DNA from: a virus
Taxonomy: Duplodnaviria > Heunggongvirae > Uroviricota > Caudoviricetes
DNA: 64,000 bases
IMG/VR virus record: IMGVR_UViG_3300034105_002625
Location: 25,437 to 89,436 of that record
Direction: 5' to 3' (one strand)
A model generated the notes under the pieces. It searched no databases and was not told the origin of the DNA. It saw nothing but the letters and a program-made list of their open reading frames with translations. Shown one piece after another: positions 36,590 through 55,886 of the stretch. Both the position numbers and the translations under genes were made by a program. The stretch's first letter is position 1. The number at the start of each line of letters is the position of its first letter.

Positions 36590-36602
36590 GAAGGGACCGA
36601 GA

Positions 36603-36647: not shown

Positions 36648-36668
36648 AATTAACCAATTAACAAACAT

Positions 36669-37532: not shown

Positions 37533-37553
37533 ACCAGACTTTACTTAAACTTC

Positions 37554-37581
37554 AAAGAGGCCTCGTGCCTCTTTTTTTTGT
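37554..37581 (+). terminator. rho-independent terminator
   Basis: AAAGAGGC-CTCGT-GCCTCTTT hairpin + TTTTTTTT. Confidence 0.55.
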
Positions 37582-37604
37582 GCTATTTATATCAAAGAGT
37601 TACT

Positions 37605-37913
37605 ATGAAAATTTTGTTACTACCAATTAGTTACGTCCTAACTAACTTAAAAAAATATTTTATGGGATTTTTCAGTATCTTTAAAAAATCAAATGATTAC
37701 AATGAAAAGGTTGTAATTGGATTCATGTCATTCATGGTGATGGTAATTGCCATTGCAGTAGACCTTGTAACAGGTTACATGGGTAAAGCTTTAGAATTAA
37801 ACGAGTACATCTTTGATGCATTCATGTACATCACATTAGGTTCATTCCTTCCAGATGTATTGGAGAAATTTGCAGCAATGAAAAACGGAGGTAAATCAAA
37901 CAACGAAGAATAA
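37605..37913 (+). CDS. membrane protein
   Basis: start adjusted to MKILLLPISY; two TM helices. Confidence 0.3.
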   Translation: MKILLLPISYVLTNLKKYFMGFFSIFKKSNDYNEKVVIGFMSFMVMVIAIAVDLVTGYMGKALELNEYIFDAFMYITLGSFLPDVLEKFAAMKNGGKSNNEE

Positions 37914-37923
37914 AAATTAGATT

Positions 37924-38535: not shown

Positions 38536-38546
38536 GTAAATATAAG

Positions 38547-38972
38547 ATGAAAACTTCACTATTAATCACATTATCATTGACAACAGCATTAGCATTTATT
38601 GGTACATATTTTATGCACCTAACAGCAGATAACATCGAACAATACCTTTCAGTAGGGTTGGTTGTCTTTGCTGATGGCTTCTTTGGTATATGGGCAGGAG
38701 TTAAGAGAGAAGGTTTTCAGACTTTTAAAGCATTAAGCGTATTAAAAACATTTGGCTTTTGGGTAGTAATGCTATCAGCTATCTTATCAATAGAAAAAGG
38801 ATTTACTGGAACAGCTTGGTTAAGCGAGACTATTATGGCTCCCTTCTTAGTATTCCAGTTAATTTCTATTTTAAAAAATGCCTCAATGGTAGGTTTAGTA
38901 AAAAATGAATTAGCAGTTCAGATATTGGACAGACTAGATAAACACAAAGGAGAAAGAGATGTTACAGAATAA
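38547..38972 (+). CDS. holin-like membrane protein
   Basis: 141 aa with 3-4 TM helices immediately after endolysin. Confidence 0.4.
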   Translation: MKTSLLITLSLTTALAFIGTYFMHLTADNIEQYLSVGLVVFADGFFGIWAGVKREGFQTFKALSVLKTFGFWVVMLSAILSIEKGFTGTAWLSETIMAPFLVFQLISILKNASMVGLVKNELAVQILDRLDKHKGERDVTE

Positions 38973-39312
38973 ACAAAACTTATTACTGGTTATAGTAGTT
39001 GTATTAATTGGTTATAATATTTTCAATACAAATAGCATCAGAACAGATGTAAAAGGGTACAAAGCTGAAATAGAATTATTACAAACTAAAGTAGATTCAG
39101 CTAAGACAGTAAACAAACAAATCGATACTAAAATCGATTCAGTAAAAGAAAAGGTAGTTTCTATTTCAAAAGAAATACATCACATAGACAATACAATAAC
39201 AATCGTAAAAAATCAAACAAATGAAAAAGCTGCTAATGCTGGTAAGTTTTCTAATGTTGAGCTTGAGCAGTTTTTCGCAAGCAGATACAACAAAAGTCTT
39301 ACTCCCAACTAA
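38959..39312 (+). CDS. spanin-like protein (N-terminal TM + coiled coil)
   Basis: 117 aa; TM then coiled-coil. Confidence 0.3.
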   Translation: MLQNKQNLLLVIVVVLIGYNIFNTNSIRTDVKGYKAEIELLQTKVDSAKTVNKQIDTKIDSVKEKVVSISKEIHHIDNTITIVKNQTNEKAANAGKFSNVELEQFFASRYNKSLTPN

Positions 39313-40912: not shown

Positions 40913-41095
40913 ATGAACACAAAAAAATTAACATCGGTTAAGGTAGAAGAGGATCTTCTACAAGAATTTAAAGAGCAATGCGTAAGAGATAAATTTTCTT
41001 TACAGAAGCTTGTAGACAGAGCAATTTTTCTTTATATTACAGAAGAGAGCTTTAAACAAAAATTACGCACACAAACAGATATTAAATTAAAATAG
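40913..41095 (+). CDS. small ribbon-helix-helix-like protein
   Basis: 60 aa ORF. Confidence 0.25.
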   Translation: MNTKKLTSVKVEEDLLQEFKEQCVRDKFSLQKLVDRAIFLYITEESFKQKLRTQTDIKLK

Positions 41096-41099
41096 TTAC

Positions 41100-42542
41100 A
41101 TGAAAGAAAAATTTCGTTATGTTAAGAAAGAAGATCGTAAAAAGATACTTCTGTTATGCGATGATATTAGGATGCATTCCGGTATCGCAACGATGGCTAG
41201 AGAGATTGTTGTAGGAACATCTCATCACTTTAACTGGATCAATCTAGGAGCTGCAATTAACCACCCCGAAGCAGGAAAAGGATTTGACATCTCAGGAGAG
41301 GTTAATAGGTTAACAGGGCTAGAAGATTCAGATGTAAAGGTATTGCCTAACAATGGTTATGGAGATGCTATGCAAATTAGAGCTTTAATTGCACAAGAAA
41401 AGCCAGATGCTATTTTTATCTTTACAGATCCAAGGTACTGGGTATGGTTATTTGAAATAGAAAGAGAGATTAGAAATGAAATTCCTTTGATGTACTTAAA
41501 CATTTGGGATGACTATCCAGCTCCTCTTTATAACAAACCGTACTACGAGTCATGTGATTTGTTAATGGCAATCTCAAAACAAACTAAAAATATTAATGAA
41601 ATAGTTTTAGGAGAAGCAGTTGAGAATAAGATTTTAAAATATGTTCCTCATGGAATAAATGAAGAGCACTTCTTTCCAATGACCTCAGTAGATCAACTTG
41701 AGACTTTAGGTCAATTTAAAAAAGACTTATTTCAAGGAAAGGATATCGAATTCGTAGCATTCTTCAATTCAAGAAACATCAGAAGAAAATCTCCAGGAGA
41801 TGTAATTCTATCTTATAGAATGTTCTGTGATTTAATCGGAGAAGAGAAAGCTAAGAAATGTGCTTTAGTAATGCACACACAGGCTGTAGATGAAAACGGT
41901 ACAGACCTTTATGCAGTAAGAGAAGCAATTTGTGATGAGAGTTATGTAAATGTATTCTTCTCACAAGAGAGATTAGATACTCCACAAATTAATTTACTTT
42001 ATAACATAGCTGATGTAGGATTGCTTATCACTTCAAATGAAGGATGGGGATTATCTCTAACTGAGACTATGATGGCAGGTAAAATGATCATAGCCAACGT
42101 AACAGGCGGTATGCAAGATCAAATGAGATTTACAGATGAGAATGGTGAGTGGATTAACTTCACTCCTGACTTCCCTTCTAACCATAGAGGTACTTATAAA
42201 GAGCATGGAGAGTGGGCAGTGCCTGTCTATCCTTCAAACATCTCAATGGTAGGTTCAGTTCCAACTCCATACATCTTCGATGATAGGTGTGCACCAGAAG
42301 ACGTAGCTAAAGCTTTAGAAGAGGTTTACAACATGGGGAAAGAAGAGAGAGATAGAAGAGGATTATTAGCTAGAGAATGGGTAACATCAGATGAATCAGG
42401 AATGTCAGCACGTCAAATGTGTACAAACGTTATTGATGCAATGGATGAGACATTTGAAAAGTTTACTCCAAGATCTAGATTTGACCTATATAAAGTAACA
42501 GACAGACCAAAAAAATATATCACACATAAATTAATATACTAG
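41100..42542 (+). CDS. glycosyltransferase, GT4-like (GT-B fold)
   Basis: 480 aa; NEGWGLSLTETMMAGKMIIA resembles the E-x-FG…EAMAxGxPVI GT4 donor-binding motif. Confidence 0.55.
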   Translation: MKEKFRYVKKEDRKKILLLCDDIRMHSGIATMAREIVVGTSHHFNWINLGAAINHPEAGKGFDISGEVNRLTGLEDSDVKVLPNNGYGDAMQIRALIAQEKPDAIFIFTDPRYWVWLFEIEREIRNEIPLMYLNIWDDYPAPLYNKPYYESCDLLMAISKQTKNINEIVLGEAVENKILKYVPHGINEEHFFPMTSVDQLETLGQFKKDLFQGKDIEFVAFFNSRNIRRKSPGDVILSYRMFCDLIGEEKAKKCALVMHTQAVDENGTDLYAVREAICDESYVNVFFSQERLDTPQINLLYNIADVGLLITSNEGWGLSLTETMMAGKMIIANVTGGMQDQMRFTDENGEWINFTPDFPSNHRGTYKEHGEWAVPVYPSNISMVGSVPTPYIFDDRCAPEDVAKALEEVYNMGKEERDRRGLLAREWVTSDESGMSARQMCTNVIDAMDETFEKFTPRSRFDLYKVTDRPKKYITHKLIY

Positions 42543-42544
42543 TT

Positions 42545-43831
42545 ATGAGTAAACCTACATTAGTAGTAAGCTGTCCAGTAGACACTTACTCAGGATATGG
42601 AGCAAGAGCAAGAGACTTTGTACAATCAATTATCGATACAGATAAGTACGAAGTAAAGATCCTATCACAAAGATGGGGAGGTACTAGATTTGGATATCTT
42701 AAAGATCATAAGAATGAATCTTTAGCCTCTAGAATTATACCACAACTAACACAACAGCCAGACATCTGGATTCAAATTACAGTACCGAATGAATTTCAAA
42801 AGGTTGGTAAATACAATATTGGACTAACAGCAGGAATTGAAACTACAATCTGTGATCCTTCCTGGATTGAAGGATGTAACAGAATGGACTTAGTATTAGT
42901 ATCAGCACAACATGCTAAGAAAGTATTTGAAGATAGTAAATTCAATATGCAAGATTCAAATACAGGACAAGTAACAGGACAGTTAGCACTTAGTACAAAG
43001 GTAGAAGTTCTATTTGAAGGAGCTGATATAGAGAAGTATGCACCATTGTCATGGCCAGTCACATTAGATCTTTCAACTATACCGGAAATGTTCTGCTTCC
43101 TAACAGTAGGTCACTGGCTTCAGGGGTCTCTTGGAGAGGATAGAAAGAATATTGGATACACTATTAAAGCATTCTTAGAAACATTTAAGAATAAAAAAGA
43201 TCAACCGGCACTTATTTTAAAAGTACAAGCAGGAGCAGGAACCTCTATCATGGATAGGGAAGCAGTGTTGGATAAAATTGATGCAATCAGAAAGACAGTA
43301 AAGGGAAAGTTACCAAACATTTACGTACTACATGGAGAAATGTCTGATGCTGAAGTAAATGAACTATACAACCACGGTAAGGTAAAGGCGATGATCTCTT
43401 TAACAAAAGGAGAAGGATTTGGAAGACCTCTACTAGAATTTAGTTTAATAAACAAACCAATCATAGCTTCAGGATGGTCAGGGCATATTGACTTCCTTGA
43501 TAATCGATATACAAAACAAATAGGAGGAACTCTTACAAACGTACATCCATCAGCAGCTGTAGACAAAATGATCTTACAAGAAAGCCAGTGGTTTACACCA
43601 GACGATGCTCTTGTAGGAAAAGCTCTTAAGGATGTATTTGAGGATTATAAACCATATAAGGAATTAGCCAAAAGACAGGGGTATAAGAGTAGAACTGAGT
43701 TCTCGTATGATAAGATGAGAGAGACGCTAGATACTCTTCTAACACAGTACATTCCTGAATTCCCTAAGCAAGTACAGTTAAAGTTACCTCAACTTAAGAA
43801 AATAGAACTACCAAAATTAACTAAAATATAA
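42545..43831 (+). CDS. glycosyltransferase, GT4-like (GT-B fold)
   Basis: 428 aa; GEGFGRPLLEFSLINKPIIASGW matches GT4 motif. Confidence 0.6.
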   Translation: MSKPTLVVSCPVDTYSGYGARARDFVQSIIDTDKYEVKILSQRWGGTRFGYLKDHKNESLASRIIPQLTQQPDIWIQITVPNEFQKVGKYNIGLTAGIETTICDPSWIEGCNRMDLVLVSAQHAKKVFEDSKFNMQDSNTGQVTGQLALSTKVEVLFEGADIEKYAPLSWPVTLDLSTIPEMFCFLTVGHWLQGSLGEDRKNIGYTIKAFLETFKNKKDQPALILKVQAGAGTSIMDREAVLDKIDAIRKTVKGKLPNIYVLHGEMSDAEVNELYNHGKVKAMISLTKGEGFGRPLLEFSLINKPIIASGWSGHIDFLDNRYTKQIGGTLTNVHPSAAVDKMILQESQWFTPDDALVGKALKDVFEDYKPYKELAKRQGYKSRTEFSYDKMRETLDTLLTQYIPEFPKQVQLKLPQLKKIELPKLTKI

Positions 43832-44289
43832 TGGAAGAAAAAATGTCAATCTGTCCACATTGTGGAGGAAATGCTTGCTATGAACAAGCAGTAACAGAAG
43901 AAGTAACAACAAGCTTTTGCTTTGGATGCGGGTATTCAACTTCAACTCTAATGGTTGAAGGAGGAGATTTAGTAAACAAAACACTAGAAGCATCACCAGA
44001 ACTTTATAAAGATCTTATGTTTGTAAGTGAAGATAAGAAAGTATGGTTCCCTTCTACAGTTACTCTTCCAAATAAAGGAATGGTATTCTTAGACGGAACA
44101 GCAAAAGAGAATTGGAGATGGGCAGCAGTAACCTCAGTAGAGATTCTAGAAGAAGAGAAAGCTAAATTTCCAAAAGGTCAGACAACTAAAATGGATATGA
44201 AAAATATCAAACATTTTGAGAAAGAAGATTTTATGGAAGCATTAGATGCTATCAAATTCTTTGATGTAGAAGTTGCTGAATCAGAATAA
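43831..44289 (+). CDS. zinc-ribbon protein
   Basis: 152 aa; CPHCGG…CFGCGYS. Confidence 0.3.
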   Translation: MEEKMSICPHCGGNACYEQAVTEEVTTSFCFGCGYSTSTLMVEGGDLVNKTLEASPELYKDLMFVSEDKKVWFPSTVTLPNKGMVFLDGTAKENWRWAAVTSVEILEEEKAKFPKGQTTKMDMKNIKHFEKEDFMEALDAIKFFDVEVAESE

Positions 44290-44291
44290 AT

Positions 44292-44308
44292 TTCTTATCT
44301 TAATAGGA
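44292..44308 (+). promoter_or_regulatory. promoter box TTTCTTATCTTAATAGG abutting ATG (leaderless candidate)
   Basis: box ends at ATG 44308. Confidence 0.35.
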
Positions 44309-44925
44309 TGAAAATAAGTTATGCAATAACAGTTTGTAATGAGTTGGAGGAGATTAAACGCTTAGTGACTTTCCTCCTTCTTACTAAACGTAAAGAAGAC
44401 GAAGTAGTTATTTTATTTGATGAGAAGAACGGAACAGATGAAGTATTTGATTACATAGAGTCTCAAGTTTATCACTGTGAAGTATTCTGTGAAAAGTTTG
44501 AAGGACACTTTGCTGATTGGAAAAATGAACTTACATCACACTGTACAGGAAAGTACATCTTTCAAATAGATGCAGACGAACTTCCAACTGAAGACCTTAT
44601 TGTAAACCTTCCGTACATCTTAGAAGTTAATCAAGATGTAGATGTATTTCTTGTACCAAGAATTAATACAGTAGAAGGACTAACACTTCAACATATTCAG
44701 AAATGGGGATGGAATGTAAATGATAAAGGTTGGGTAAACTTCCCAGACTACCAATGGAGAATTTATAGAAATGATCCTAGTATAAAATGGAAGAACAGAG
44801 TACACGAAGTACTAGAAGGATTTAAAACATCCACACTACTTCCAGCAGAGGAGATGTATTGCCTATATCATCCAAAGACAATCGACAGACAAGAGAAACA
44901 GAATAATTATTACGATACATTATAA
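44308..44925 (+). CDS. glycosyltransferase family 2-like
   Basis: 205 aa; N-terminal ISYAITVCNE… typical GT2 Rossmann start; DxD-like IDADE. Confidence 0.5.
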   Translation: MKISYAITVCNELEEIKRLVTFLLLTKRKEDEVVILFDEKNGTDEVFDYIESQVYHCEVFCEKFEGHFADWKNELTSHCTGKYIFQIDADELPTEDLIVNLPYILEVNQDVDVFLVPRINTVEGLTLQHIQKWGWNVNDKGWVNFPDYQWRIYRNDPSIKWKNRVHEVLEGFKTSTLLPAEEMYCLYHPKTIDRQEKQNNYYDTL

Positions 44926-44932
44926 ATTAGTT

Positions 44933-46243
44933 ATGGATAGTATTTTAAATTTAGTACAAGAGTACATTACAAAGAAGGATAGCGAGAAGAAATGGGTAGC
45001 AGGAGAAGACTTAGTTCAATATGCTGGACCTTACTTCGATGGTCAAGAAGCTCAAGCGGTTGTTAGGACTATGCTTGAAGGATGGTTAGTTCTAGGAAAA
45101 GAAGGAGCAATGTTTGAAAGACGTTTCCCTAAAAAATTAGGGCAGAAGACTGGAGTCATTGTTAATAGCGGTTCAAGTGCTAATTTACTAATGATGTTAG
45201 CCTTAACATCTAAGAGAGGAATGAACTTACCAAAAGGTACAAAAGTAATTACTCCAATAGCAGGATTCCCTGCAACACTTAGTCCTACTATTCAAGTAGG
45301 CTTTACACCAATCTTTGTTGATATTGAATTAGAATCTCTTAATCTAGACTTAGATCAAGTAGAGCAAGCATGCATTGATCATCCGGATGCAAAGATAATT
45401 ACATTTGCTCACGTATTAGGTAATCCACCTAACATGGATCGATTAATGGAAATTGTAAACAAATATAATTTAATTCTATTAGAAGACTGTTGTGATGCTT
45501 TAGGAACGACATACGATGGTAAGATGTTAGGATCATTTGGTAAAATGTCTTCATGCTCATTCTATCCAGCACATCACATTACAATGGGTGAAGGAGGATT
45601 TGTAGCTTGTGGAGATGCTCATACAGAAAAGATACTAAGAAGTTTTAGAGACTGGGGTAGAGGGTGTTTCTGTCAAGGTAAAGCAAATGCTTTAGAATGT
45701 GGTTCATGTGGTATTAGATTTAGTAATTGGTTACCAAGTCTTCCTAATGAGATCTTTGATCACAAATATACTTATGAAGAGATTGGATACAATTTAAAAC
45801 CTACAGAGTTACAAGCAGCAATGGGTAATGTTCAGTTAGGTAAGTTAGAAGAGATTGGAGTACTGAGAAGAAGAAATCATAAAGCAATTGTTGACATCTT
45901 TAAGAAGTATGAAGATAAATTTATCCTTCCTAAAGCTACAGATAAATCAGATCCAGATTGGTTTGCAGTAGCATTAACATTAAGAGACGGAGTAGGATTT
46001 ACAAGATCTGAATTCTGTCAATACTTAGAAGCAAATAAGATTCAAACAAGACCTTACTTTGCAGGTAACATTATGTTACAGCCAGGCTATTCACATTTAA
46101 TTGATTCAAAAGAAGTTATTGAGAAATATCCAGTATCAAGAAAAGTAACAACAGATACTTTCTTCTTAGGATGCTCACCAATCATTACATTGGAACAAAT
46201 AGAATACATTGGAACAATTGTAGATAAATTCTTCAGTAAATAG
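44933..46243 (+). CDS. NDP-4-keto-6-deoxyhexose 3-dehydrase (E1 / DdhC / ColD-type, PMP-dependent DegT family enzyme with active-site His replacing Lys and [2Fe-2S] Cys cluster)
   Basis: 436 aa; DegT/aminotransferase fold; SFYPAHHITMGEGG (His where aminotransferases have the PLP Lys); Cys cluster CFCQGKANALECGSCG. Confidence 0.7.
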   Translation: MDSILNLVQEYITKKDSEKKWVAGEDLVQYAGPYFDGQEAQAVVRTMLEGWLVLGKEGAMFERRFPKKLGQKTGVIVNSGSSANLLMMLALTSKRGMNLPKGTKVITPIAGFPATLSPTIQVGFTPIFVDIELESLNLDLDQVEQACIDHPDAKIITFAHVLGNPPNMDRLMEIVNKYNLILLEDCCDALGTTYDGKMLGSFGKMSSCSFYPAHHITMGEGGFVACGDAHTEKILRSFRDWGRGCFCQGKANALECGSCGIRFSNWLPSLPNEIFDHKYTYEEIGYNLKPTELQAAMGNVQLGKLEEIGVLRRRNHKAIVDIFKKYEDKFILPKATDKSDPDWFAVALTLRDGVGFTRSEFCQYLEANKIQTRPYFAGNIMLQPGYSHLIDSKEVIEKYPVSRKVTTDTFFLGCSPIITLEQIEYIGTIVDKFFSK

Positions 46244-46244
46244 T

Positions 46245-47090
46245 ATGAAAAAATTTGTAATAAGTACACATGGGTTTGATATGGGAATAGGAGGCTTAAA
46301 GGTTTTACATAAACTTTGTCACCTTCTAAATGAAAATGGATACGACGCATATCTAATACCAGTAAATTTTAATGAACCATTCGGCATGTATGAGGGGTAT
46401 AATACCAAAATGATTACACAAGACATACTAGATAATCTGGAAGAGGCCATAGTAGTGTACCCTGAAAGCTGGAACGGTAACTACCTCAATGCACCAAACG
46501 TAGTTAGGTGGATGATAGGACCTCCTACCAAGGATGTTGCTGCTACATGGTCTAGCAAGGACCTATGGTTTTGGTATATTCCTTTTTATAAGTCTTCTGA
46601 GTTTACTAAGCATTTAGAAAATCAACTGTATATAGGAGAGCAGCATAGGGATATCTTTTTTAATAGAAACTTAGAAAGGACTATTACTAGTTGGACTTTA
46701 AGAAAAGCTCAAGGGTTAGTACAAGAAGTAAATTACAAACACCCTAAGGATAGTTTGTTTCTTCCGTATCATGCAGCAGGAGATTTAGCCTCTCTTTCTG
46801 ATATATTTAATAGATCTAAAGCATTCTACTGCTACGATACATATACCTACTTAACAATACAGAGCCTACTATGCGGTACAGAGGCCATAGTGCTTCCAAA
46901 TAGTTGGACCGAGAAAGAACATTTTCTAAAAGGATTTGCACTAAGCAAGTATGTAGCCTATGGAATAGACGATCTACCCAGAGCCAGAAGTATCCGTAAT
47001 GAATTTTTAGAAGAAGTAGAAGAGATTGAAACATTAACAATAAAACAGTTACATGAATTTACAGAAAAATGCTCTACCTACTTTAGCTGA
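46245..47090 (+). CDS. hypothetical protein in glycan cluster
   Basis: 281 aa ORF. Confidence 0.3.
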   Translation: MKKFVISTHGFDMGIGGLKVLHKLCHLLNENGYDAYLIPVNFNEPFGMYEGYNTKMITQDILDNLEEAIVVYPESWNGNYLNAPNVVRWMIGPPTKDVAATWSSKDLWFWYIPFYKSSEFTKHLENQLYIGEQHRDIFFNRNLERTITSWTLRKAQGLVQEVNYKHPKDSLFLPYHAAGDLASLSDIFNRSKAFYCYDTYTYLTIQSLLCGTEAIVLPNSWTEKEHFLKGFALSKYVAYGIDDLPRARSIRNEFLEEVEEIETLTIKQLHEFTEKCSTYFS

Positions 47091-48081
47091 GTTTAGCTTC
47101 TTGATCGTAACTGCAGCAAGAGATGAGAATAGACTAAGAGAAGCCTACAGGTCAATAAGGCTACAATACCCGGAAAATGAAATAGTAGTAGTATATGATA
47201 ACACTGGTGTTTTATTACTAAATAGAGAAGATATAAACCTACTGGAGATTCCAACTTCGGAAAGAGTGTATGTTAGTAGGGGATATAATATAGCATTAAA
47301 AAACTGCTCTAAGCCATATTTTGTATTTCTACATGATGATACTTTTATTGCTCCTAACTTTCTAGAAAACATATTACCCCATATAAGCGAAAGTCAGTTT
47401 TGTAACTTCACTGCAATAGAGCCTCCAGTATTTGGCAACATCGATTCAGCAACAGCACCAATTAGGGATTTTGGTAGAAGCTTAGATACGTTTGTAGTAG
47501 AGAACTTTAATAAATATACAGAAAAGTATGTACAGACCTTAGAACACAGAACAGTAGAATCTCCTTTTGGAGGATTTTTTATGGTGGGAAGTACTAAGAG
47601 TATATTAAGTATAGGAGGATTTGATGAAACCTTTCAACCCTATTTCTTTGAAGACAGTGACTTAATGGTACGGCTACACCTAGCAAACTTTAGGTTTATA
47701 CAGGTACTAGATAGTTTAGTATATCATATGGTAAGCCTAACCTCTAGAGGAACTCCGGAGAGTAGGGTAGCTGAGAGTATCACTCATAAGTTGTTTGTTA
47801 AGAAATGGAAGGTAGAATTCAATTACTTCAGACAGTATACAATGTCAGCAGGTATTCCATATAAGAAGATACCAGTCTTAATTAAACACACAAACTGTAG
47901 TGAATCATTACAAGAGTACCTATCCTTAATAAGTGAACCTAGTACAGTAGAGCTAATAGTAGACGGACTGCAAATATCTCAAGAAGATGTAGGATATATA
48001 CAATCATTACCGTATATTATACAGGATACAATACTATCAGGTAGCTACCAACTGGGAAGTATGCAACTAAATTTTAACTAA
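47053..48081 (+). CDS. putative glycosyltransferase (GT2-like)
   Basis: 342 aa; weak GT-A-like VFLHDDTF; cluster context. Confidence 0.3.
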   Translation: MNLQKNALPTLAEFSFLIVTAARDENRLREAYRSIRLQYPENEIVVVYDNTGVLLLNREDINLLEIPTSERVYVSRGYNIALKNCSKPYFVFLHDDTFIAPNFLENILPHISESQFCNFTAIEPPVFGNIDSATAPIRDFGRSLDTFVVENFNKYTEKYVQTLEHRTVESPFGGFFMVGSTKSILSIGGFDETFQPYFFEDSDLMVRLHLANFRFIQVLDSLVYHMVSLTSRGTPESRVAESITHKLFVKKWKVEFNYFRQYTMSAGIPYKKIPVLIKHTNCSESLQEYLSLISEPSTVELIVDGLQISQEDVGYIQSLPYIIQDTILSGSYQLGSMQLNFN

Positions 48082-48108
48082 ATAACATAAAAAGATAATT
48101 TTATAAAG

Positions 48109-49065
48109 ATGAAAAAAGTAGTTTACGTTACCGGTTGTTTAGGATTTATTGGATCCTACGTAACAAGGAAGTGTTTAGATAGAGGATGGTACGTTAAGGG
48201 AGTTGATAAGAAGACCTATGCAGCTAATAAAGACTTATTAAAAGAGTTTAAAGAGTATGAAAACTTTTCATTTGTAGATTGTGATATAAATGATTTGAAG
48301 TTCCTATATGACTGTGACTATATAATTAATACAGCAGCTGAGACTCATGTAGGAAACTCTATAATGGATTCGGATGTATTTGTACATTCAAATGTAAATG
48401 GAGTTCACAATCTACTAGAGTTAATAAAAAATCATAGAGGAGAGAATGCTACTAAGCCTACACTCCTTCACTTTAGTACAGACGAAGTTTATGGAGATAT
48501 CGAAGAAGGAGAGCATATCGAGACTGACATACTTAAACCATCTAATCCATACTCAGCTACTAAAGCTGCAGCAGATATGCTAATAACAGCTTGGGCAAGA
48601 ACTTACAAACTTCCTTATATTATAATAAGGCCAACAAACAATTACGGAATAGGGCAGTATGTAGAGAAGTTAATACCTAAAGCCTGTAAGTACTTACGAC
48701 TTGGTAAAAAGATTCCTCTACACAATAACGGTACTCCAATTAGAAACTGGCTCCATGCCCAGGATACAGCTGAGGCTGTAATTAGAATTATTGAATCAGG
48801 AGTGCAGAATGAAATCTATAATATTTGTGGAGGATTTGAGCAAACTAATTTGGATACTATTAAAAAAGTTCTTATATTGTACTATAAGGATTTAGGAGTA
48901 GACATAGAAGCTAACTTAGACCTAAAATGTAATAGACAAGGACAAGATGTTAGGTATGCCTTAAATGATGATAAATTAAGAGCATTAGGATGGAAACCTA
49001 CAATTGACTTTGACTTGGAATTAAAAAATGTTGTAGAATATTATAGAGAAAAATTCATATGGTAA
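48109..49065 (+). CDS. NAD-dependent NDP-sugar 4,6-dehydratase/epimerase (extended SDR)
   Basis: 318 aa; VTGCLGFIGSYV Rossmann motif; YSATK (YxxxK). Confidence 0.75.
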   Translation: MKKVVYVTGCLGFIGSYVTRKCLDRGWYVKGVDKKTYAANKDLLKEFKEYENFSFVDCDINDLKFLYDCDYIINTAAETHVGNSIMDSDVFVHSNVNGVHNLLELIKNHRGENATKPTLLHFSTDEVYGDIEEGEHIETDILKPSNPYSATKAAADMLITAWARTYKLPYIIIRPTNNYGIGQYVEKLIPKACKYLRLGKKIPLHNNGTPIRNWLHAQDTAEAVIRIIESGVQNEIYNICGGFEQTNLDTIKKVLILYYKDLGVDIEANLDLKCNRQGQDVRYALNDDKLRALGWKPTIDFDLELKNVVEYYREKFIW

Positions 49066-50813
49066 AAGTAAGTGATGTAATCGTTCAATACCTTAAAGCT
49101 AATAAGATAGAGATTGTATTTGGAATAATTGGCTCAGCTAATTCTCACATATTCAATTCGATATTAGAAGAAGGAAGTATCAAATTGGTATCGGTACATC
49201 ATGAACAAGCCGCTGTAATGGCTATGGGAGCTTATTACCGTTCAACCGGAAAGATGGCTGTTGCATTAGTAACAGCAGGAGGAGGAGCATCAAATGCTTC
49301 AACAGGAATTCTTTCCAACTGGGCTGACTCCATTCCAGGAATAACTATCTCAGGACAAGAACAATCCTACTACTTAGCTGAATATAAAGATATGAGAATG
49401 TTTGGAGTACAAGGTTATGATGCAACTAAAGCATATGAAAACTGTACTAAAATGTCTTATGTACTTACAGAAAATACCTTACATTCAATAATGCCTTTTG
49501 CATTTGCTTTAACACAAGAAGGTAGACCAGGGCCAGTATTCCTGGAAGTACCTTTCGATGTTCAAAGTAAAATGATAGAAGAAGTAGAAATAAAAGTAAC
49601 TCCAATTGTAGAAATATACCCTGAGACTTCTTCTGATACAGACTATATCCTCTCTGCACTTTCACAAGCAGAGCGACCAGTTATACTAGGAGGTCACGGC
49701 GTTAAGCTAGCTAAAGCAGAAGAATTATTTAAACAATTTGTAGGAGACTATAACATACCAACAGTATTAAGCTGGTCAGCAGTAGACTTACTTGATGATA
49801 ATGATCCTAACTATTTCGGAAGACCAGGAGTACAGGGTCAGAGAGCAGCTAACTTTATAGTACAGAACTCTGATTTACTAATTGTATTAGGAAGCAGACT
49901 ATCATTACTTCAGACAGGCTACAAAAGAGAAGACTTTGCTCCATATGCTAATATCATTCATGTTGATGTAGATGATACAGAAATTAATAAGTTCAACGGA
50001 AAGAATATAAAAGCAGATGTAGGAGAATTACTTACAAGTTTAAATTCTAAATGGAAAGCTGAGATTGAAATAGAGGAATGGATACAATACTGTAATCAAA
50101 TTAAAGAAAAGTATCCTTTAGTAATGCCTGAGCATTTAGCAGACCCTACCAATTCATATACATTTATTGATAAATTCTCACAAAAAGTATCGGACAATTA
50201 TACAATCGTTACTGATATGGGAACAGCTTTATTAAGTGGATTCTATGGATGGAGAATTAAACCTAACCAAAAGATGTTTACCTCTCTAGGATTAGGAGAG
50301 ATGGGATATGGATTAGCAGCAGCAGTTGGAGCTGGATTTGGAGAAAGACCAGTGATGTGTTTAAATTGTGATGGAGGTATGATGATGAACATACAAGAGT
50401 TACAAACAATTAAGACACATAACCTTCCAGTAAAGATTATCATATTCAACAATGACGGATACTTAATGATCAAACATACTCAGAATATGTTATTTAAAGG
50501 AGCACGTACTTGTGTTGACAAAGAGACAGGAGTAACACTTCCTGATTATAAAAAAGTAGCACATGCATTTGATTTTGAATACTTCACAGAAGATAACGTA
50601 GATGACTTCTTAGCATTTGAAGGCCAGGCTATCATGGAAGTATTTATGGATCCAAATCAAGAATTTATTCCTAAGGTAAGAGGAATGAAGCTAGAAGATA
50701 GTACAATCCAAGCAGGACTATTAGAGGAGATGTCTCCACTTCTTCCGTTAGAAGAAATAGAACAAGCAATGGTTGCAGGAATTAACCAAAGAAGTAAAAC
50801 AGTTGTAAGATGA
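49059..50813 (+). CDS. thiamine-diphosphate-dependent acetolactate-synthase-like enzyme (YerE-like two-carbon branching enzyme candidate)
   Basis: 584 aa; three-domain ALS/POX architecture; ThDP motif CDGGMMMN-x21-NNDGY. Confidence 0.75.
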   Translation: MVKVSDVIVQYLKANKIEIVFGIIGSANSHIFNSILEEGSIKLVSVHHEQAAVMAMGAYYRSTGKMAVALVTAGGGASNASTGILSNWADSIPGITISGQEQSYYLAEYKDMRMFGVQGYDATKAYENCTKMSYVLTENTLHSIMPFAFALTQEGRPGPVFLEVPFDVQSKMIEEVEIKVTPIVEIYPETSSDTDYILSALSQAERPVILGGHGVKLAKAEELFKQFVGDYNIPTVLSWSAVDLLDDNDPNYFGRPGVQGQRAANFIVQNSDLLIVLGSRLSLLQTGYKREDFAPYANIIHVDVDDTEINKFNGKNIKADVGELLTSLNSKWKAEIEIEEWIQYCNQIKEKYPLVMPEHLADPTNSYTFIDKFSQKVSDNYTIVTDMGTALLSGFYGWRIKPNQKMFTSLGLGEMGYGLAAAVGAGFGERPVMCLNCDGGMMMNIQELQTIKTHNLPVKIIIFNNDGYLMIKHTQNMLFKGARTCVDKETGVTLPDYKKVAHAFDFEYFTEDNVDDFLAFEGQAIMEVFMDPNQEFIPKVRGMKLEDSTIQAGLLEEMSPLLPLEEIEQAMVAGINQRSKTVVR

Positions 50814-51667
50814 AAATAAAAGTAGCAATTATTGGTACAGGTAATATCGGAACAGATTTATTACTCAAAGCCTTAAAGACAGACTTCATGGATGTAGTAG
50901 CATTCGTAGGTCGTAGATTAGATTCAGATGGAATGCTAACAGCTAAGAAATACAATGTACTGATATCAGATCAAGGTATTCAATACTTTATTGACAATCC
51001 AAAGTGTTGTGATGTAGTTTACGATTGTACCTCAGCAGCAGATGCTATTGAACATGCTAAGATATTTAAAGACCAGGAAATAAAAGTAATTGACCTAACA
51101 CCAGCCAAGGTAGGAGATATGTGCGTACCAGATGTTAACTCTGAGATTATATTGACAGATGATAATGTAAATATGATTACTTGCGGAGGACAAGCTTCAA
51201 TGCCTATGCTTCATTTACTATCAAAAGAGTGCATAGGATTAGAATACATCGAAGTAGTATCACAGATTGCATCTAAGAGTGCAGGAATGGCTACAAGAAT
51301 AAACGTAGACAATTACATTCAAACAACTCAGAAAGCTATAACAAAGTTTACTGGTTGTTCAAATAACAAAGTAATACTAAACCTTAACCCTGCTGAACCC
51401 TGTGTTGATATGCAGACAACTATCTTTATCAAAGCAAAGAAAGTTAATTTTGAAAATCTAACAGAGAAGGTCTTAGAAAAAATTGAAGAGTTAAGAACAT
51501 ACATTCCATATTACGAAATGGTGCTTCCTCCAACTATGAACGATAATGGTGTAGTTGTAATGAGTATTAAAGTAAGAGGTACAGGAGACTATCTTCCAGC
51601 CTATGCTGGTAACCTGGATATTATTAACTGTGCAGCAATTAAAGTAACAGAAAGATTGGTAAAATGA
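50810..51667 (+). CDS. acetaldehyde dehydrogenase (acylating), MhpF/DmpF family
   Basis: 285 aa; MKIKVAIIGTGNIGTDLL N-terminus; catalytic Cys in ITCGGQASMP. Confidence 0.75.
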   Translation: MKIKVAIIGTGNIGTDLLLKALKTDFMDVVAFVGRRLDSDGMLTAKKYNVLISDQGIQYFIDNPKCCDVVYDCTSAADAIEHAKIFKDQEIKVIDLTPAKVGDMCVPDVNSEIILTDDNVNMITCGGQASMPMLHLLSKECIGLEYIEVVSQIASKSAGMATRINVDNYIQTTQKAITKFTGCSNNKVILNLNPAEPCVDMQTTIFIKAKKVNFENLTEKVLEKIEELRTYIPYYEMVLPPTMNDNGVVVMSIKVRGTGDYLPAYAGNLDIINCAAIKVTERLVK

Positions 51668-52662
51668 GAAAAGTAATCATAACAGATTCAAGTCTTAGAG
51701 ATGGAAATCATAGTGTTAAGCATACTATAAGTTTAGATAGTATAGCAAGGTATTGTCAATTTGCTGATAGAGCTGGCGTACCAATTGTAGAGGTAGGTCA
51801 CGGAAATGGATTAGCAGCATCCTCTTTACTTGTAGGTAAGTCTGTTAATACAGATGAAGAGATGCTAACAACTGCTAGAAAGAATCTAAAGAATTCTAAA
51901 CTAGGAATTCATATGATACCAGGACTAGCAACACTAGAACATACTAGGAGAGCAATTGATCTAGGAGTAGATGTAGTGAGAGTGGCAACACATTGTACAG
52001 AAGCAACACTATCTAAATCTCATATTGAAGCACTAGCAAAAGCAAATGTAGAAGTGTTCGGAGTATTGATGATGAGTGCTTTAATTACTCCTCTAGAATT
52101 ATTAGAGCAAGCTAAAATAATGGAAGGGTATGGAGCTAAGGCTATTATTATAATGGACTCTACAGGAACATATCTACCATTTGATGTACAGCAGAGAATT
52201 GCCCTACTGACAAGCAATCTAAATATTGCAGTAGGATTTCATGCTCATAACAACTTAGGATGTGCAGTAGCCAATTCCCTAACAGCAGTAGAATTTGGAG
52301 CAGACTATATTGACGGATGTATTAGAGGATTTGGAGCCGGAGCAGGAAATGCACCACTAGAAATACTTATACCAGTATTAGAGCAAACAGGCTTTCAAGT
52401 AGGAATAAACTTCCAGGAGACGATCAAAGAAGCTGATAATGTAATGAACTACTTAGTTCCATCAGCTCCTATCACAACTCCAATTAACATACTAACCGGA
52501 CTTAAGAAACTATTCTCAGGATTTGAAAAGCCTATCGTAAGTGCTTCTAAGTTGTATGGAATAGAATATTCATCTCTTATCTTTGAATTAGGTAATAGAA
52601 AGTTGGTAGCCGGGCAAGAAGATCTTATCTTAGAGGTAGCACAGAAGCTAAAGAAGAGATAG
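51664..52662 (+). CDS. 4-hydroxy-2-oxovalerate aldolase-like (MhpE/DmpG family, HMGL-like TIM barrel)
   Basis: 332 aa; ITDSSLRDGNHSVKH (D-x-x-LRDG…H) metal/ketoacid-binding signature; translationally coupled to the dehydrogenase. Confidence 0.75.
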   Translation: MRKVIITDSSLRDGNHSVKHTISLDSIARYCQFADRAGVPIVEVGHGNGLAASSLLVGKSVNTDEEMLTTARKNLKNSKLGIHMIPGLATLEHTRRAIDLGVDVVRVATHCTEATLSKSHIEALAKANVEVFGVLMMSALITPLELLEQAKIMEGYGAKAIIIMDSTGTYLPFDVQQRIALLTSNLNIAVGFHAHNNLGCAVANSLTAVEFGADYIDGCIRGFGAGAGNAPLEILIPVLEQTGFQVGINFQETIKEADNVMNYLVPSAPITTPINILTGLKKLFSGFEKPIVSASKLYGIEYSSLIFELGNRKLVAGQEDLILEVAQKLKKR

Positions 52663-53574
52663 ATGAACATATTAATTACAGGAGGGAATGGATTCTTAGG
52701 ATCTAATATTGTTAGAAAGCTGTTAAAGGAAGGACATAGTGTCTACTTATTTTCAAACAATACAAATAACATAGAGGACATACTTCCTCAAGTTTTATTT
52801 GACTACAGTAGTACTAATTCACTACCTATGTTTAAGAAGAAAATAGAGACATTTTCACCAGACATAGTAATACATTGTGGATGGAGTGGAGGAAATAGTT
52901 ACGCAGATACTAATAGTATGGATCAGTTTTATGAAAATGTAGATCCAAGTATCTCTCTACTACAACTACTAAGTAAGCTCAAGAAGAAGCCTAAGTTTGT
53001 AGGTTTTGGAAGTTTTGCAGAGTATGGAGAGATGTTCAATCCAGTAAGTGAAACAGTCCAAGAAGTTCCTACAAACCTATATGGACTATCAAAGTATACT
53101 TTTAAGAAGTATAGTGAAATGATATGCAACCAACACAGTATAGAATGGGTATGGATAAGGCCCTGCTACGTTTACGGACCAGGAGATGTAAGCACAAGAC
53201 TTCTTCCTAGTATAATTAAGAAGTTCTTAAGGAATGAAGCAGTAATACTTGATGAGTGTACTTCTACTGTAGATTATATTTATATAGATGATTTTGTTAA
53301 TTCAATTTATTTTCTTATATTAACAAAACATACAGGAGTGTACAACATATGCTCAGGAAAACAATACAAGATAAGAGATATAGTTGAGCAAGTTCATAAA
53401 CAAATTGAGAGTAGTAGTACTATTGAATTTAGTGCTAATCTAAAAAGAACCTCTACATACTCTTATGTATGTGGGGACAGACGAAAGATTGATGCTGTTG
53501 CAAATATTCCAACTCAGATATCTTTAAATGAAGGATTAGTTAAAACAATAACATATTATAAAGTAAGAAAATGA
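52663..53574 (+). CDS. NAD(P)-dependent sugar epimerase/reductase (extended SDR)
   Basis: 303 aa; ITGGNGFLGSNI; YGLSK (YxxxK). Confidence 0.7.
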   Translation: MNILITGGNGFLGSNIVRKLLKEGHSVYLFSNNTNNIEDILPQVLFDYSSTNSLPMFKKKIETFSPDIVIHCGWSGGNSYADTNSMDQFYENVDPSISLLQLLSKLKKKPKFVGFGSFAEYGEMFNPVSETVQEVPTNLYGLSKYTFKKYSEMICNQHSIEWVWIRPCYVYGPGDVSTRLLPSIIKKFLRNEAVILDECTSTVDYIYIDDFVNSIYFLILTKHTGVYNICSGKQYKIRDIVEQVHKQIESSSTIEFSANLKRTSTYSYVCGDRRKIDAVANIPTQISLNEGLVKTITYYKVRK

Positions 53575-54212
53575 AAAACGAAGTTGTAGTAAAAGAAGGA
53601 GGCTGGATTTGGCCTAAGAAGGATGAGAGAAGTTGGCAAGGTCAAATAAAACAAAAGGAACTAGCTCAATACATACTTCCCTATGTAGTGAAGAATGATG
53701 TAATGATACAAGCAGGTGGTAATTGTGGATTCATTCTAAGTACCTTTGTTCCCTACTTTAACAACATCTATACATTTGAACCAGATCCAATAAACTTTTA
53801 TTGCTTGAATCAGAATGTTACAGCACCAAGTGTTATTAAGATGCAATGTTGCTTAGGAAAAGAAAGTACACCAGTAGCTGTACAACATCTACAAAGAGGT
53901 ATAGGAGAGGGAATAGACATAGGGGGAGTACATGTTAGTGGAGTAGGGTTTACTCCTACTATTGTTATCGACAAATTAAACCTACAGGCATGTGACTTAA
54001 TTCAACTAGACATAGAAGGGTATGAACTCAATGCACTACTGGGTGCAGTAGAGACTATTAAGAAATATAAACCTGTACTATGTATAGAGTTCTGTGAAAA
54101 CTGGTTAAATAGGTATGAAGCTACGTCAGATAGTGTTGAAACTCTTTTAGTTGAATTAGGATACAAACATGTAGAATCGTACCAAGCAGATAGAATTTAC
54201 ATAACACAATAG
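53571..54212 (+). CDS. putative FkbM-family methyltransferase
   Basis: 213 aa; QAGGNCGF resembles SAM-binding G-x-G-x-G of FkbM-type MTases; cluster context. Confidence 0.4.
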   Translation: MKNEVVVKEGGWIWPKKDERSWQGQIKQKELAQYILPYVVKNDVMIQAGGNCGFILSTFVPYFNNIYTFEPDPINFYCLNQNVTAPSVIKMQCCLGKESTPVAVQHLQRGIGEGIDIGGVHVSGVGFTPTIVIDKLNLQACDLIQLDIEGYELNALLGAVETIKKYKPVLCIEFCENWLNRYEATSDSVETLLVELGYKHVESYQADRIYITQ

Positions 54213-54230
54213 GTTACATATATACATACA

Positions 54231-55508
54231 ATGGAAAATTCAATTAGTTTTTGCATCAATACAGCAGTAGATGAACTACCTTATTTAAAACTACTAATGA
54301 AGTCGTTAAAAGAAAATCTTAAGTACGACCACCACGAGGTAATTGTGTTTGTTGATTCTGATAATCAAAAAACCTTCGAATGGCTGACTACTCAAAAGTT
54401 AGAGTTTAAGAATCTAAAAATACTTAAAAACATACTCCCAGTATGTTATGGCCCTATTAGGAATATAAATGAAATGTTTAAATTTGCTTCTCATGAAATA
54501 GTTTCTTACCTACAGTCTGATATGGTTGTTTCTAGAAACTATGATGAGTATCTCTTAAAGCATATTAAACCTAATACGATACTATCTAGCACTAGAATTG
54601 AACCACCACTACATGGACCAGGTCCTGAGAAGCATACTGTGAACTTTGGACTAACTCCCTCTGAGTTTGATTATGAGGGGTTTTTAAACTACTGTGACAT
54701 ATGTAGAGAAGATAAAACAACAAGTTACTATTTTGCACCATTTACTTTATATAGAGAGATTTGGAACACTATAGGAGGGCAAGACAACACCTTTAGACGG
54801 TCAAGAGATGACTCTGATATTTTAAATAGGTTTATACTTTCAGGAGTAGAGATTGTTCAAACATGGGAAGCACTGGTATACCATTTTACTTGTACTTCTA
54901 GTAGAGGACCGGGCTGGCATGAGCCAAGTAATACAAAGGCACAGGAAAAGTTACAACTCCAAGCAAGAGCAGATAAGGTAGAACTTACTAGAATATTTAG
55001 AAAGTGGGGAGAATTTAGCCATGGACATCCAACACCGTACTACTATAATATAGTCTCAGAAATTAATATAGATATAGATATAGGTAACTTAGAGTTATTT
55101 AAAAACGTTGAGATGTTTTTTATAAAAAACTACATAACTTCTAAAAAACTATATAACGAGTTTATAAATGAGAATGAACATCTATATGCTAATATACTTT
55201 ACAAGTACTCTCAAGAACAGTGGGAGGAGTACAAGTACATGTGCAACATAGAGAGATTAGAGGATAGAGTTTGTATAGGAGAACCAGAAGGAGATGTGGT
55301 AGTTTCATTTAACCTTAGTAGTATTAACCAAAATACATTTAATAATGTACTAAGTAAGTTACAACACATAATACACGAAGCAGAACCAGGTGATTATGAA
55401 TTCGAAGGATTTACTTTCTCAATAAAGAACAAAGAGAATATTATAGAGACTAAACTTAAAGTAAACAATCCTGATATAAAACCAGAACATCTATATAAGG
55501 TATACTAG
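54231..55508 (+). CDS. putative glycosyltransferase (GT2-like N-terminal domain) with C-terminal extension
   Basis: 425 aa; SFCINTAVDE… N-terminus; HEVIVFVDSD (DxD-like). Confidence 0.4.
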   Translation: MENSISFCINTAVDELPYLKLLMKSLKENLKYDHHEVIVFVDSDNQKTFEWLTTQKLEFKNLKILKNILPVCYGPIRNINEMFKFASHEIVSYLQSDMVVSRNYDEYLLKHIKPNTILSSTRIEPPLHGPGPEKHTVNFGLTPSEFDYEGFLNYCDICREDKTTSYYFAPFTLYREIWNTIGGQDNTFRRSRDDSDILNRFILSGVEIVQTWEALVYHFTCTSSRGPGWHEPSNTKAQEKLQLQARADKVELTRIFRKWGEFSHGHPTPYYYNIVSEINIDIDIGNLELFKNVEMFFIKNYITSKKLYNEFINENEHLYANILYKYSQEQWEEYKYMCNIERLEDRVCIGEPEGDVVVSFNLSSINQNTFNNVLSKLQHIIHEAEPGDYEFEGFTFSIKNKENIIETKLKVNNPDIKPEHLYKVY

Positions 55509-55535
55509 AAAATAAACTATTTATAACAAAAACAT

Positions 55536-55886
55536 ATGAGCTTAATCAACGAAATAAAAGAGATGCTATCAGAAGTTACCAAAGTAAACTTCAAAGGAAA
55601 TAAATTTGTCCTTAAGATAGATGTAAATGAAGATCCAAATAAGAAAGGAATTAAAGTACAATTCCTTCCAACAACATTCTCAGGTATGTCTAAACAACAA
55701 CAAGACGATATCGCTATGGACTTAGGAGCTAAATTAAATCAAGGATTAGCACCTCTAGGGTTAGCAGTAGAGAGAGACAGAGAGTTAAAGGATAAGACAA
55801 TTGTAGGCTTCTTTATCTATATCGAATATCTAGATAAGATTATTATCAATGCTCTAAATCAAGCAGCACAAACAAGTAACGACTAA
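55536..55886 (+). CDS. hypothetical protein
   Basis: 116 aa ORF. Confidence 0.3.
   Translation: MSLINEIKEMLSEVTKVNFKGNKFVLKIDVNEDPNKKGIKVQFLPTTFSGMSKQQQDDIAMDLGAKLNQGLAPLGLAVERDRELKDKTIVGFFIYIEYLDKIIINALNQAAQTSND

Follow-up and report, generated by a model that had tools for sequence, protein, structure and literature searches.

A dehydrogenase-aldolase pair beside a JanthE-like carboligase in a Flavobacterium phage: probable donor supply for an acyl-branched deoxysugar

A coupled dehydrogenase-aldolase pair in a phage glycan block

The stretch of DNA analysed here (64,000 nucleotides, positions 25,437 to 89,436 of IMG/VR record IMGVR_UViG_3300034105_002625; hereafter the window) carries a pair of genes coding for an acylating acetaldehyde dehydrogenase and a class II pyruvate aldolase, which directly follow the gene for a thiamine diphosphate (ThDP)-dependent carboligase within a block of glycan genes. 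Every gene in the window lies on one strand, the G+C content is approximately 34%, and the region from 20.7 to 39 kb shares 84% nucleotide identity with Flavobacterium phage vB_FspM_immuto (Immutovirus, MW353175, 160 kb). The source is a lake-water phage which, judging by its sequence, is an Immutovirus-like Flavobacterium phage. The glycan block (41100-55886) comprises 15 same-strand genes separated by intergenic gaps of no more than 27 nt, as determined by open reading frame (ORF) calling, and the pair and its nearest neighbours are arranged as follows:

48109-49065, + strand: RmlB-like nucleoside diphosphate (NDP)-hexose 4,6-dehydratase (PF16363/PF01370), which opens a conserved four-gene core
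49059-50813, + strand: YerE/JanthE-like ThDP-dependent carboligase with a CDG cofactor motif (three TPP domains; JanthE match)
50810-51667, + strand: acylating (CoA-dependent) acetaldehyde dehydrogenase of the DmpF/BphJ/ErwJ type (Pfam, NCBIfam, catalytic Cys)
51664-52662, + strand: class II pyruvate aldolase (4-hydroxy-2-oxovalerate aldolase, DmpG/BphI/ErwI type) with a His83/Phe284 pocket (Pfam, NCBIfam, residue mapping)
52663-53574, + strand: extended short-chain dehydrogenase/reductase (SDR) with YxxxK, a candidate side-chain ketoreductase (ErwF/YerF role; PF01370, 2.5e-37)

The dehydrogenase and aldolase ORFs encode 285 and 332 amino acids, respectively, and are joined to each other and to the upstream gene by overlapping codons. 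An ATGA at 50810-50813 ('agATGAaaa') combines the stop of the ThDP gene with the start of the dehydrogenase, a second ATGA at 51664-51667 ('aaATGAgaa') combines the dehydrogenase stop with the aldolase start, and the TAG stop of the aldolase directly abuts the ATG of the next gene at 52663. The initial annotation had recognized both genes, their positions, the ATGA overlap between them and their place directly downstream of a YerE-like ThDP enzyme in a sugar operon, all of which is borne out by the exact ORFs, by the raw sequence and by Pfam and NCBIfam, and the motifs that it had quoted (MKIKVAIIGTGNIGTDLL, ITCGGQASMP and DSSLRDGNHSVKH) are all present in the ORFs.

The dehydrogenase matches AcetDehyd-dimer (PF09290, 2.2e-40) and Semialdhyde_dh (PF01118, 1.2e-7), and the aldolase matches HMGL-like (PF00682, 1.9e-42) and the C-terminal DmpG communication domain (PF07836, 7.8e-16). 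Both proteins also exceed the curated equivalog cut-offs of the respective NCBIfam models (TIGR03215, 321.6 bits, cut-off 282.25; TIGR03217, 342.2 bits, cut-off 286), and the Pfam and NCBIfam matches of the pair and its ThDP neighbour are far above chance. The catalytic Cys of the dehydrogenase, in ITCGGQA, lines up with the identical motif in PDB 7z3s (the best dehydrogenase match) and 4jn6_B, and aldolase residues R12, D13, H16, H193 and H195, aligned to R17, D18, H21, H200 and H202 of DmpG, are invariant and comprise the catalytic Arg/His and the Asp/His/His metal ligands. Retention of the DmpG communication domain is consistent with an aldolase-dehydrogenase complex, for which both assembly and channelling are predicted. 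No PHROGs family was found for either protein. The block contains no meta-cleavage gene (hydratase, hydrolase or dioxygenase), the neighbours of the pair being sugar-nucleotide enzymes, the ThDP enzyme, a methyltransferase and glycosyltransferases.

Conservation, ThDP partner and aldolase pocket

Scanning IMG/VR with the aldolase returned 38 loci (67-94% identity), and in all 36 that were informative the 4,6-dehydratase, ThDP, dehydrogenase and aldolase genes occur in the same order and with the same spacing, between flanks that vary. The 4,6-dehydratase gene (60-92% identity) immediately precedes the ThDP gene in nearly every viral locus of this first gene order, and an SDR gene lies directly 3' of the aldolase in about 23 of the 36. 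A scan with the ThDP enzyme returned 64 loci, with the pair present in at least 45 of the 58 that were tabulated; the ThDP-dehydrogenase-aldolase trio is conserved in approximately 50 viral contigs. A second viral gene order (16 loci; G+C 28-40%) has the dehydrogenase and ThDP genes on one strand and the aldolase on the opposite strand. Five of these 16 loci (L147, L148, L150-L153, L155-L157, L159-L162, L167, L177 and L181) come from contigs named GVMAG, that is, giant-virus metagenome-assembled genome (MAG) bins. Public assemblies contain the exact aldolase sequence of the window in 43 index blocks, from which 20 contigs were read, and some of the contigs are approximately 158-162 kb long. 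None of 50,697 deposited phage records carried the pair, or a YerE-like enzyme of more than 31% identity; the matches in these records were mis-filed bacterial contigs and ordinary acetolactate or isopropylmalate synthases.

In four viral loci (L164, L165, L170 and L178) the dehydrogenase-aldolase pair is absent and the ThDP motif is GDG or SDG instead of CDG. The slot 3' of the ThDP gene in L165 and L178 is occupied by two HpcH/HpaI-type pyruvate aldolase paralogues and a 4Fe-4S (LdpA-like) protein (Pfam scan), and L164 and L170 share the layout and the GDG motif of L165. This natural swap of pyruvate-aldolase modules beside the same kind of ThDP enzyme gives strong comparative support for the supply of a keto-acid donor. 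The swapped slots span 7764-10375 in L165 and 7829-11710 in L178, the latter also containing a C-methyltransferase. In the glycan locus of immuto, the glycosyltransferases and small genes of the flanks share 88-93% protein identity with those of the window, but the central cassette (L001, MW353175, 13027-19989) is completely different and codes for WecE-type aminotransferases, a PglD-like protein and a methyltransferase, without a ThDP enzyme, dehydrogenase or aldolase. The same flanks around a different centre (44933-55508 in the window) mark the cassette as a replaceable module in a conserved phage glycan locus, an exchange which, by sequence comparison, resembles that of serotype-like modules. 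The modularity and variability of the viral cassettes indicate selection on a phage-made glycan.

For the cellular comparison we used the 80 genomic loci with the closest aldolases (46-54% identity), Pectobacterium atrosepticum not being among them. A dehydrogenase gene is adjacent in 78/80, a YerE-like ThDP enzyme lies within 10 kb in 55/80, and a DegT-family homologue of the 3-dehydrase E1 lies within 10 kb in 43/80. Two cellular loci were inspected in detail, both of which are polysaccharide loci (E3, AscD-type reductase; GT2, family 2 glycosyltransferase):

Mucilaginibacter: E3, nucleotidyltransferase, 4,6-dehydratase, SDR, ThDP, dehydrogenase, aldolase, SDR, E1, Gmd, Wzx
Janthinobacterium: Wzz, nucleotidyltransferase, 4,6-dehydratase, E1, HpaI-type aldolase, ThDP, SDR, dehydrogenase, aldolase, SDR, GT2

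The locus of Janthinobacterium sp. BJB426 (L054) has an HpcH/HpaI-type aldolase (5452-6294) as well as a BphI/BphJ-type pair around a GDG-type ThDP enzyme, which may represent two routes of keto-acid supply or a two-step chain extension. A sister group of pairs without a ThDP enzyme within 10 kb (L070, L075, L084, L086, L090, L092-L094, L096-L098, L100-L102, L106, L108, L110 and L119) comes mostly from Streptomyces, Micromonospora and other actinomycetes, has mostly Phe/Leu/Phe at the pocket positions described below, and may belong to secondary-metabolite clusters.

The ThDP enzyme of the window has three TPP domains (Pfam), and its closest solved relative is JanthE (PDB 8rph, E-value 6e-150), with PpYerE (5ahk, 1.7e-74) and the acetolactate synthases far behind. 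It aligns with JanthE from end to end at 43.6% identity, including an identical VMCLNCDGGMMMN stretch that contains the unusual CDG ThDP motif, a motif shared by 37/37 of the viral ThDP partners and 31/55 of the genomic ones. JanthE is a YerE-like enzyme whose physiological substrates are stated to be unknown and which accepts 4-hydroxy-2-oxovalerate (PMC12188165). In Duganella, Massilia and Pseudoduganella, the gene for an orthologue of JanthE (78-92% identity) has an E1-like gene immediately on one side and the dehydrogenase-aldolase pair immediately on the other, a context that suggests 4-hydroxy-2-oxopentanoate as the natural donor of JanthE, which may act in the same pathway as the phage enzyme. 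The loci L041-L048 (Duganella, Massilia, Pseudoduganella and Rugamonas) are those of the JanthE orthologues.

The residue alignment to DmpG (PDB 1nvm) places His83 of the phage aldolase at DmpG Leu88 (BphI Leu87), Ile85 at DmpG Leu90 (BphI Leu89) and Phe284 at DmpG Tyr291 (BphI Tyr290). The Leu/Tyr pocket of the 4S-specific enzymes, present in 4/4 solved catabolic enzymes, is thus lacking from the phage aldolase, and the residues at BphI positions 87/89/290 are distributed as follows:

Viral loci: His/Ile/Phe (37/37)
Second viral gene order: His/Ile/His (15/16)
Genomic loci linked to a ThDP enzyme: His / Ile or Met / Phe (51/55)
Genomic loci without a ThDP enzyme nearby (mainly actinomycetes): mostly Phe/Leu/Phe
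Four solved catabolic enzymes and a Salmonella homologue: Leu / Leu, Ile or Met / Tyr

In the genomic set, His at the first position goes with ThDP linkage (51/58 vs 4/22; Fisher 6e-9, uncorrected for phylogeny and therefore descriptive only, since the loci are related). In BphI, C4 of the substrate lies between Tyr290 and Leu87; stereocontrol is lost in the Y290F variant, and the preference of the L87N/Y290F double mutant is inverted to 4R substrates (PMC3962088). The sugar erwiniose, a product of bacterial YerE-like chemistry, requires the 4R acid (PMC9306805). The parallel between His83/Phe284 and the BphI double mutant, together with this requirement, suggests that the ThDP-linked aldolase clade is probably naturally adapted to make or accept the 4R enantiomer. 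As Ile85 is not smaller than BphI Leu89, a short aldehyde (C2 or C3) is the likelier substrate.

Neighbour-joining analysis of 151 aldolases groups the viral sequences with one metagenomic representative (60% identical) in a clade of 99/100 bootstrap support, nested among non-canonical Phe-type sequences. The initial annotation had named two outcomes that would speak against a sugar role, a grouping of the proteins with the canonical catabolic MhpEF enzymes and a transcription unit separate from the sugar genes. No such grouping is seen, identity to catabolic and solved enzymes being only about 36-40%, compared to 47-54% to sugar-cluster homologues, and there is no sign of a separate unit. Two metagenomic relatives of the aldolase (P0124 and P0125) are fusion proteins, one with a C-terminal carrier-protein-like tail (LDSLSVVEL) and the other with a C-terminal methyltransferase-like domain.

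Acceptor enzymes, proposed pathway and alternatives

The remaining genes of the block are, in order:

41100-42542, + strand: GT-B glycosyltransferase, Glycos_transf_1-like (PF00534, 3.5e-7; phrog_2170), 91% amino acid identity to the immuto homologue; conserved flank
42545-43831, + strand: second GT-B glycosyltransferase (Pfam and PHROG matches), 88% identity to immuto; conserved flank
43831-44289, + strand: 152-amino-acid protein with CxxC...CxxC motifs, 93% identity to immuto, without a Pfam, NCBIfam or PHROG match
44308-44925, + strand: family 2 glycosyltransferase (PF00535, 8.8e-9)
44933-46243, + strand: E1/RfbH-type pyridoxamine phosphate-dependent NDP-4-keto-6-deoxyhexose 3-dehydrase (RfbH equivalog; PDB 3bcx/3bb8 match)
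46245-47090, + strand: 281-amino-acid protein without a family match (Pfam, NCBIfam, PHROG), homologues of 34-75% identity in some viral loci
47053-48081, + strand: family 2 glycosyltransferase (PF00535, 2.3e-10)
53571-54212, + strand: FkbM-family methyltransferase (PF05050, 8e-12; TIGR01444), candidate for sugar O-methylation
54231-55508, + strand: family 2 glycosyltransferase (PF00535, 5e-7), the final enzyme gene of the variable cassette
Ending at 55886, + strand: small conserved protein, the 15th and closing gene (block order)

The E1 gene product scores 452 bits on the RfbH equivalog of NCBIfam (cut-off 423) and matches PDB 3bcx/3bb8 at an E-value of 4e-102, with an identical SFYPAHHITMGEGG motif and the Cys-rich stretch retained. 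The 4,6-dehydratase reaches 298.8 bits on TIGR01181, below the cut-off of 365, and only 70.6 bits on the CDP-glucose type. Many related viral cassettes lack E1, so that their acceptor would be a 4-keto-6-deoxyhexose. The ORF of the 281-amino-acid protein, which recurs in several viral cassettes, overlaps that of the following glycosyltransferase by 38 nt, and the true start of the latter may be further downstream. Just 5' of the first glycosyltransferase, an ORF of approximately 60 amino acids (40914-41096, + strand) shows a ribbon-helix-helix-like pattern by eye (KLTSVKVEEDLLQEF...), occupies the position of immuto gene 89 and is preceded by an AT-rich stretch; it possibly codes for a small protein that regulates the block. 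Terminator scanning gave no convincing terminator inside the block, and a sigma-70 promoter scan, which does not cover Bacteroidota promoters, was uninformative (58 promoter-like sites vs 72 expected). Elsewhere in the window (approximately 20700-39000), synteny with immuto points to 7-deazaguanine DNA-modification genes (GTP cyclohydrolase, QueF-like reductase and DNA guanine transglycosylase), thymidylate synthase, family A DNA polymerase, GroES/GroEL and a chitinase-like lysin with a holin.

None of the 15 block proteins has a predicted transmembrane segment, and the cassette is thus without a Wzx/Wzy-type flippase or polymerase or a membrane-bound phosphoglycosyl transferase, which points to a soluble target that is glycosylated in the cytoplasm. 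Phage glycosyltransferases are known to act on virion proteins, DNA and host surface glycans (PMC12619734), any of which may be the target of the cassette.

Our analysis suggests that the pair is the donor-supply module of a virus-encoded pathway to an acyl-branched ('higher branched') deoxysugar of the erwiniose type, a reading to which we assign a probability of roughly 0.8. The acylating dehydrogenase would reduce acetyl-CoA (possibly propionyl-CoA) with NAD(P)H to the aldehyde, which would be passed to the partner aldolase for condensation with pyruvate. The product would be a 4-hydroxy-2-oxo acid, with 4-hydroxy-2-oxopentanoate as the most likely one and 4R as its probable configuration. 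Decarboxylation of this acid by the JanthE/YerE-like ThDP enzyme would then give an acyl-anion equivalent, which the enzyme would attach at C4 of an NDP-4-keto-(3,)6-dideoxyhexose, itself the product of the RmlB-like 4,6-dehydratase and the E1-like 3-dehydrase. The downstream SDR would reduce the side-chain ketone, the FkbM enzyme may methylate a hydroxyl, and the soluble glycosyltransferases of the block would move the sugar to its target.

A bacterial precedent exists in Pectobacterium atrosepticum SCRI1043, where ErwE (ThDP) and ErwF (reductase) adjoin the BphI-like aldolase ErwI and the BphJ-like dehydrogenase ErwJ (Steitz et al., 2022; PMC9306805). Its authors proposed that ErwJ converts acetyl-CoA to acetaldehyde, that ErwI combines this with pyruvate to (R)-4-hydroxy-2-oxopentanoate and that ErwE ligates the product to CDP-4-keto-3,6-dideoxyglucose, and ErwE assayed in vitro used gamma-hydroxy keto acids as donors but not pyruvate (PMC9306805). 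Of the two roles offered by the initial annotation, the second, formation of a 4-hydroxy-2-oxo-acid appendage, is essentially the best-supported mechanism. The first, supply of acetaldehyde, hydroxyethyl-ThDP or a pyruvyl unit, fares poorly as ErwE-type enzymes reject pyruvate and acetaldehyde and other pyruvate aldolases replace the pair in some phages. Its description of this as a novel use of the pair does not hold, because the erwiniose cluster is a documented bacterial precedent, for which the same use was proposed in 2022 and the ThDP step was shown in vitro.

Several points weigh against an erwiniose-type pathway. The 4,6-dehydratase is RmlB-like and not of the CDP type, so that the nucleotide carrier may differ from that of the erwiniose pathway. 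Neither an E3 (AscD-type) reductase nor a sugar nucleotidyltransferase was found by tblastn in the 64-kb window or the viral loci, the rest of the approximately 160-kb genome and the host lying outside the search, and E1 would need a host electron donor and host NDP-glucose. The SDR (52663-53574) is only approximately 22% identical to the SDRs of the bacterial clusters, its ketoreductase role being a prediction. JanthE is promiscuous and takes pyruvate and other short keto acids (PMC12247030, PMC12188165), so homology alone does not fix the donor of the phage ThDP enzyme. The stereochemistry ascribed to His83/Phe284 is by analogy with Asn/Phe mutants, bootstrap support in the aldolase tree is good for the viral clade alone and poor at the deeper nodes, and the likeness to ErwE/F/I/J (WP_011093010-13) is drawn from described roles and not from sequence identity.

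The mechanism may be the same but with a longer acyl-CoA (propionyl or butyryl), the donor being 4-hydroxy-2-oxohexanoate or -heptanoate and the branch longer than that of erwiniose. ErwE conversion was 76% with 4-hydroxy-2-oxohexanoate compared to 49% with the pentanoate (PMC9306805), and BphI-type aldolases accept propionaldehyde, but longer aldehydes needed the L89A substitution in BphI (PMC3962088), and this length-limiting Leu89 is Ile85, which is not smaller, in the phage aldolase. The dehydrogenase moreover passes the acetaldehyde dehydrogenase equivalog, and we consider a longer donor unlikely.

Rather unlikely, too, is a two-carbon (yersiniose-type) branch formed from pyruvate or free acetaldehyde, with the pair only supplying acetaldehyde or pyruvate, or extending the attached branch. 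YerE uses pyruvate, as JanthE also can, and viral loci L143 and L145 have a CDG-type ThDP enzyme without an aldolase, but ErwE rejects both pyruvate and acetaldehyde (PMC9306805, PMC12247030). Pyruvate is abundant and would make a dedicated supply unnecessary, and exchange with HpaI-type pyruvate aldolases fits keto-acid synthesis and not acetaldehyde supply. Class II pyruvate aldolases require a metal-chelated alpha-keto acid as the nucleophile, which makes their extension of a sugar-bound methyl ketone impossible.

It is highly improbable that these are catabolic auxiliary metabolic genes (AMGs), which would enhance the carbon and energy metabolism of the host during infection by cleaving 4-hydroxy-2-oxovalerate into pyruvate and acetyl-CoA and would lie only incidentally in a sugar cluster, for although both proteins pass NCBIfam equivalogs of catabolic enzymes and K01666 has already been filed as an 'amino acid metabolism AMG' in a virome survey (PMC13303688), the block has no hydratase, dioxygenase or other meta-cleavage gene, the pair is translationally coupled to the ThDP enzyme and retained alongside it in about 50 viral loci and 55 cellular ones, identity is higher to the sugar-cluster homologues than to the catabolic enzymes, the Leu87/Tyr290 pocket of the 4S-specific enzymes is replaced and a different pyruvate aldolase family fills the slot in some phages.

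With donor supply for a branched sugar as the preferred reading, the enzyme logic is already known from bacteria (2022) and the viral setting appears to be new: no report linking YerE-type branching to viruses was found in the searchable literature. New in detail are the occurrence in a virus, the pairing with a JanthE-type enzyme, the reduced set of genes and the variability of the cassette. Virome surveys and pipelines file these genes as catabolic or 'amino acid metabolism' AMGs, and their context places them in glycan biosynthesis. Acyl-branched sugar synthesis, until now described only in (myco)bacterial lipopolysaccharides, would extend to viruses; because JanthE-type CDG enzymes are linked to the pair in genomes, a physiological donor can be put forward for testing in a family described as having no known natural substrate, and aldolases with the His/Phe pocket are natural candidates for 4R-selective pyruvate aldolases in biocatalysis. 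A wider proposal, which we offer tentatively and at somewhat less than even odds, is that the abundant Flavobacterium myophages of freshwater and the second group of viral contigs, several of them binned as giant-virus MAGs, make their own erwiniose-like higher branched sugars from acetyl-CoA, pyruvate and a host NDP-hexose using 4R-adapted BphI-type aldolases. The BphI/BphJ pair would be exchanged among relatives for HpaI-type aldolases or aminosugar cassettes in a serotype-like manner, and the glycosyltransferases, all of them soluble, would act on virion proteins or DNA and not on a lipid-linked polysaccharide. If true, this would be the first virus-encoded ThDP-dependent sugar-branching pathway and would assign a physiological role to the JanthE (CDG) subfamily.

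Comparison with known systems

The erwiniose cluster is the closest parallel in terms of gene roles, with the same four enzyme roles side by side and with acceptor genes (4,6-dehydratase and E1) and glycosyltransferases also present. The phage cassette differs in being phage-encoded and not a bacterial lipopolysaccharide locus, in having a ThDP enzyme of the JanthE (CDG) subtype and an RmlB-like instead of a CDP-type 4,6-dehydratase, and in that no E3, nucleotidyltransferase or transmembrane proteins were found. JanthE itself (Janthinobacterium sp. HH01; PDB 8rph/8rpi/8rpj) shares a full-length alignment and the CDG motif with the phage enzyme, which is a distant member of the same group and not an orthologue.

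The catabolic complexes BphI-BphJ, DmpG-DmpF, HsaF-HsaG and MhpE-MhpF share with the phage pair their fold, domains, catalytic and metal-binding residues, communication domain and gene adjacency. The phage pair differs from them in its low identity (36-40%), in the replacement of Leu87/Tyr290 by His/Phe and in its location in a sugar operon instead of a meta-cleavage or steroid pathway, and its direction would be that of synthesis and not cleavage.

In the YerE/YerF pathway to yersiniose A (Yersinia pseudotuberculosis), as proposed for the phage, a ThDP enzyme branches an E1-derived NDP-4-keto-3,6-dideoxyhexose at C4 and the side-chain ketone is then reduced, but YerE uses pyruvate and has no need of an aldolase or dehydrogenase. 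In the caryophyllose cluster of Mycobacterium marinum (MMAR_2331, aldolase; MMAR_2332, ThDP), a YerE-like enzyme receives a hydroxylated keto acid from a pyruvate aldolase, the same logic as proposed here, but the aldolase is of another family, there is no acyl-CoA reductase and the arrangement is not that of the window. The HpaI family is the aldolase type tied to the caryophyllose cluster (PMC9306805), and caryophyllose-like HpcH/HpaI aldolases occupy the same slot in the phage relatives L165 and L178 and, by shared layout, in L164 and L170.

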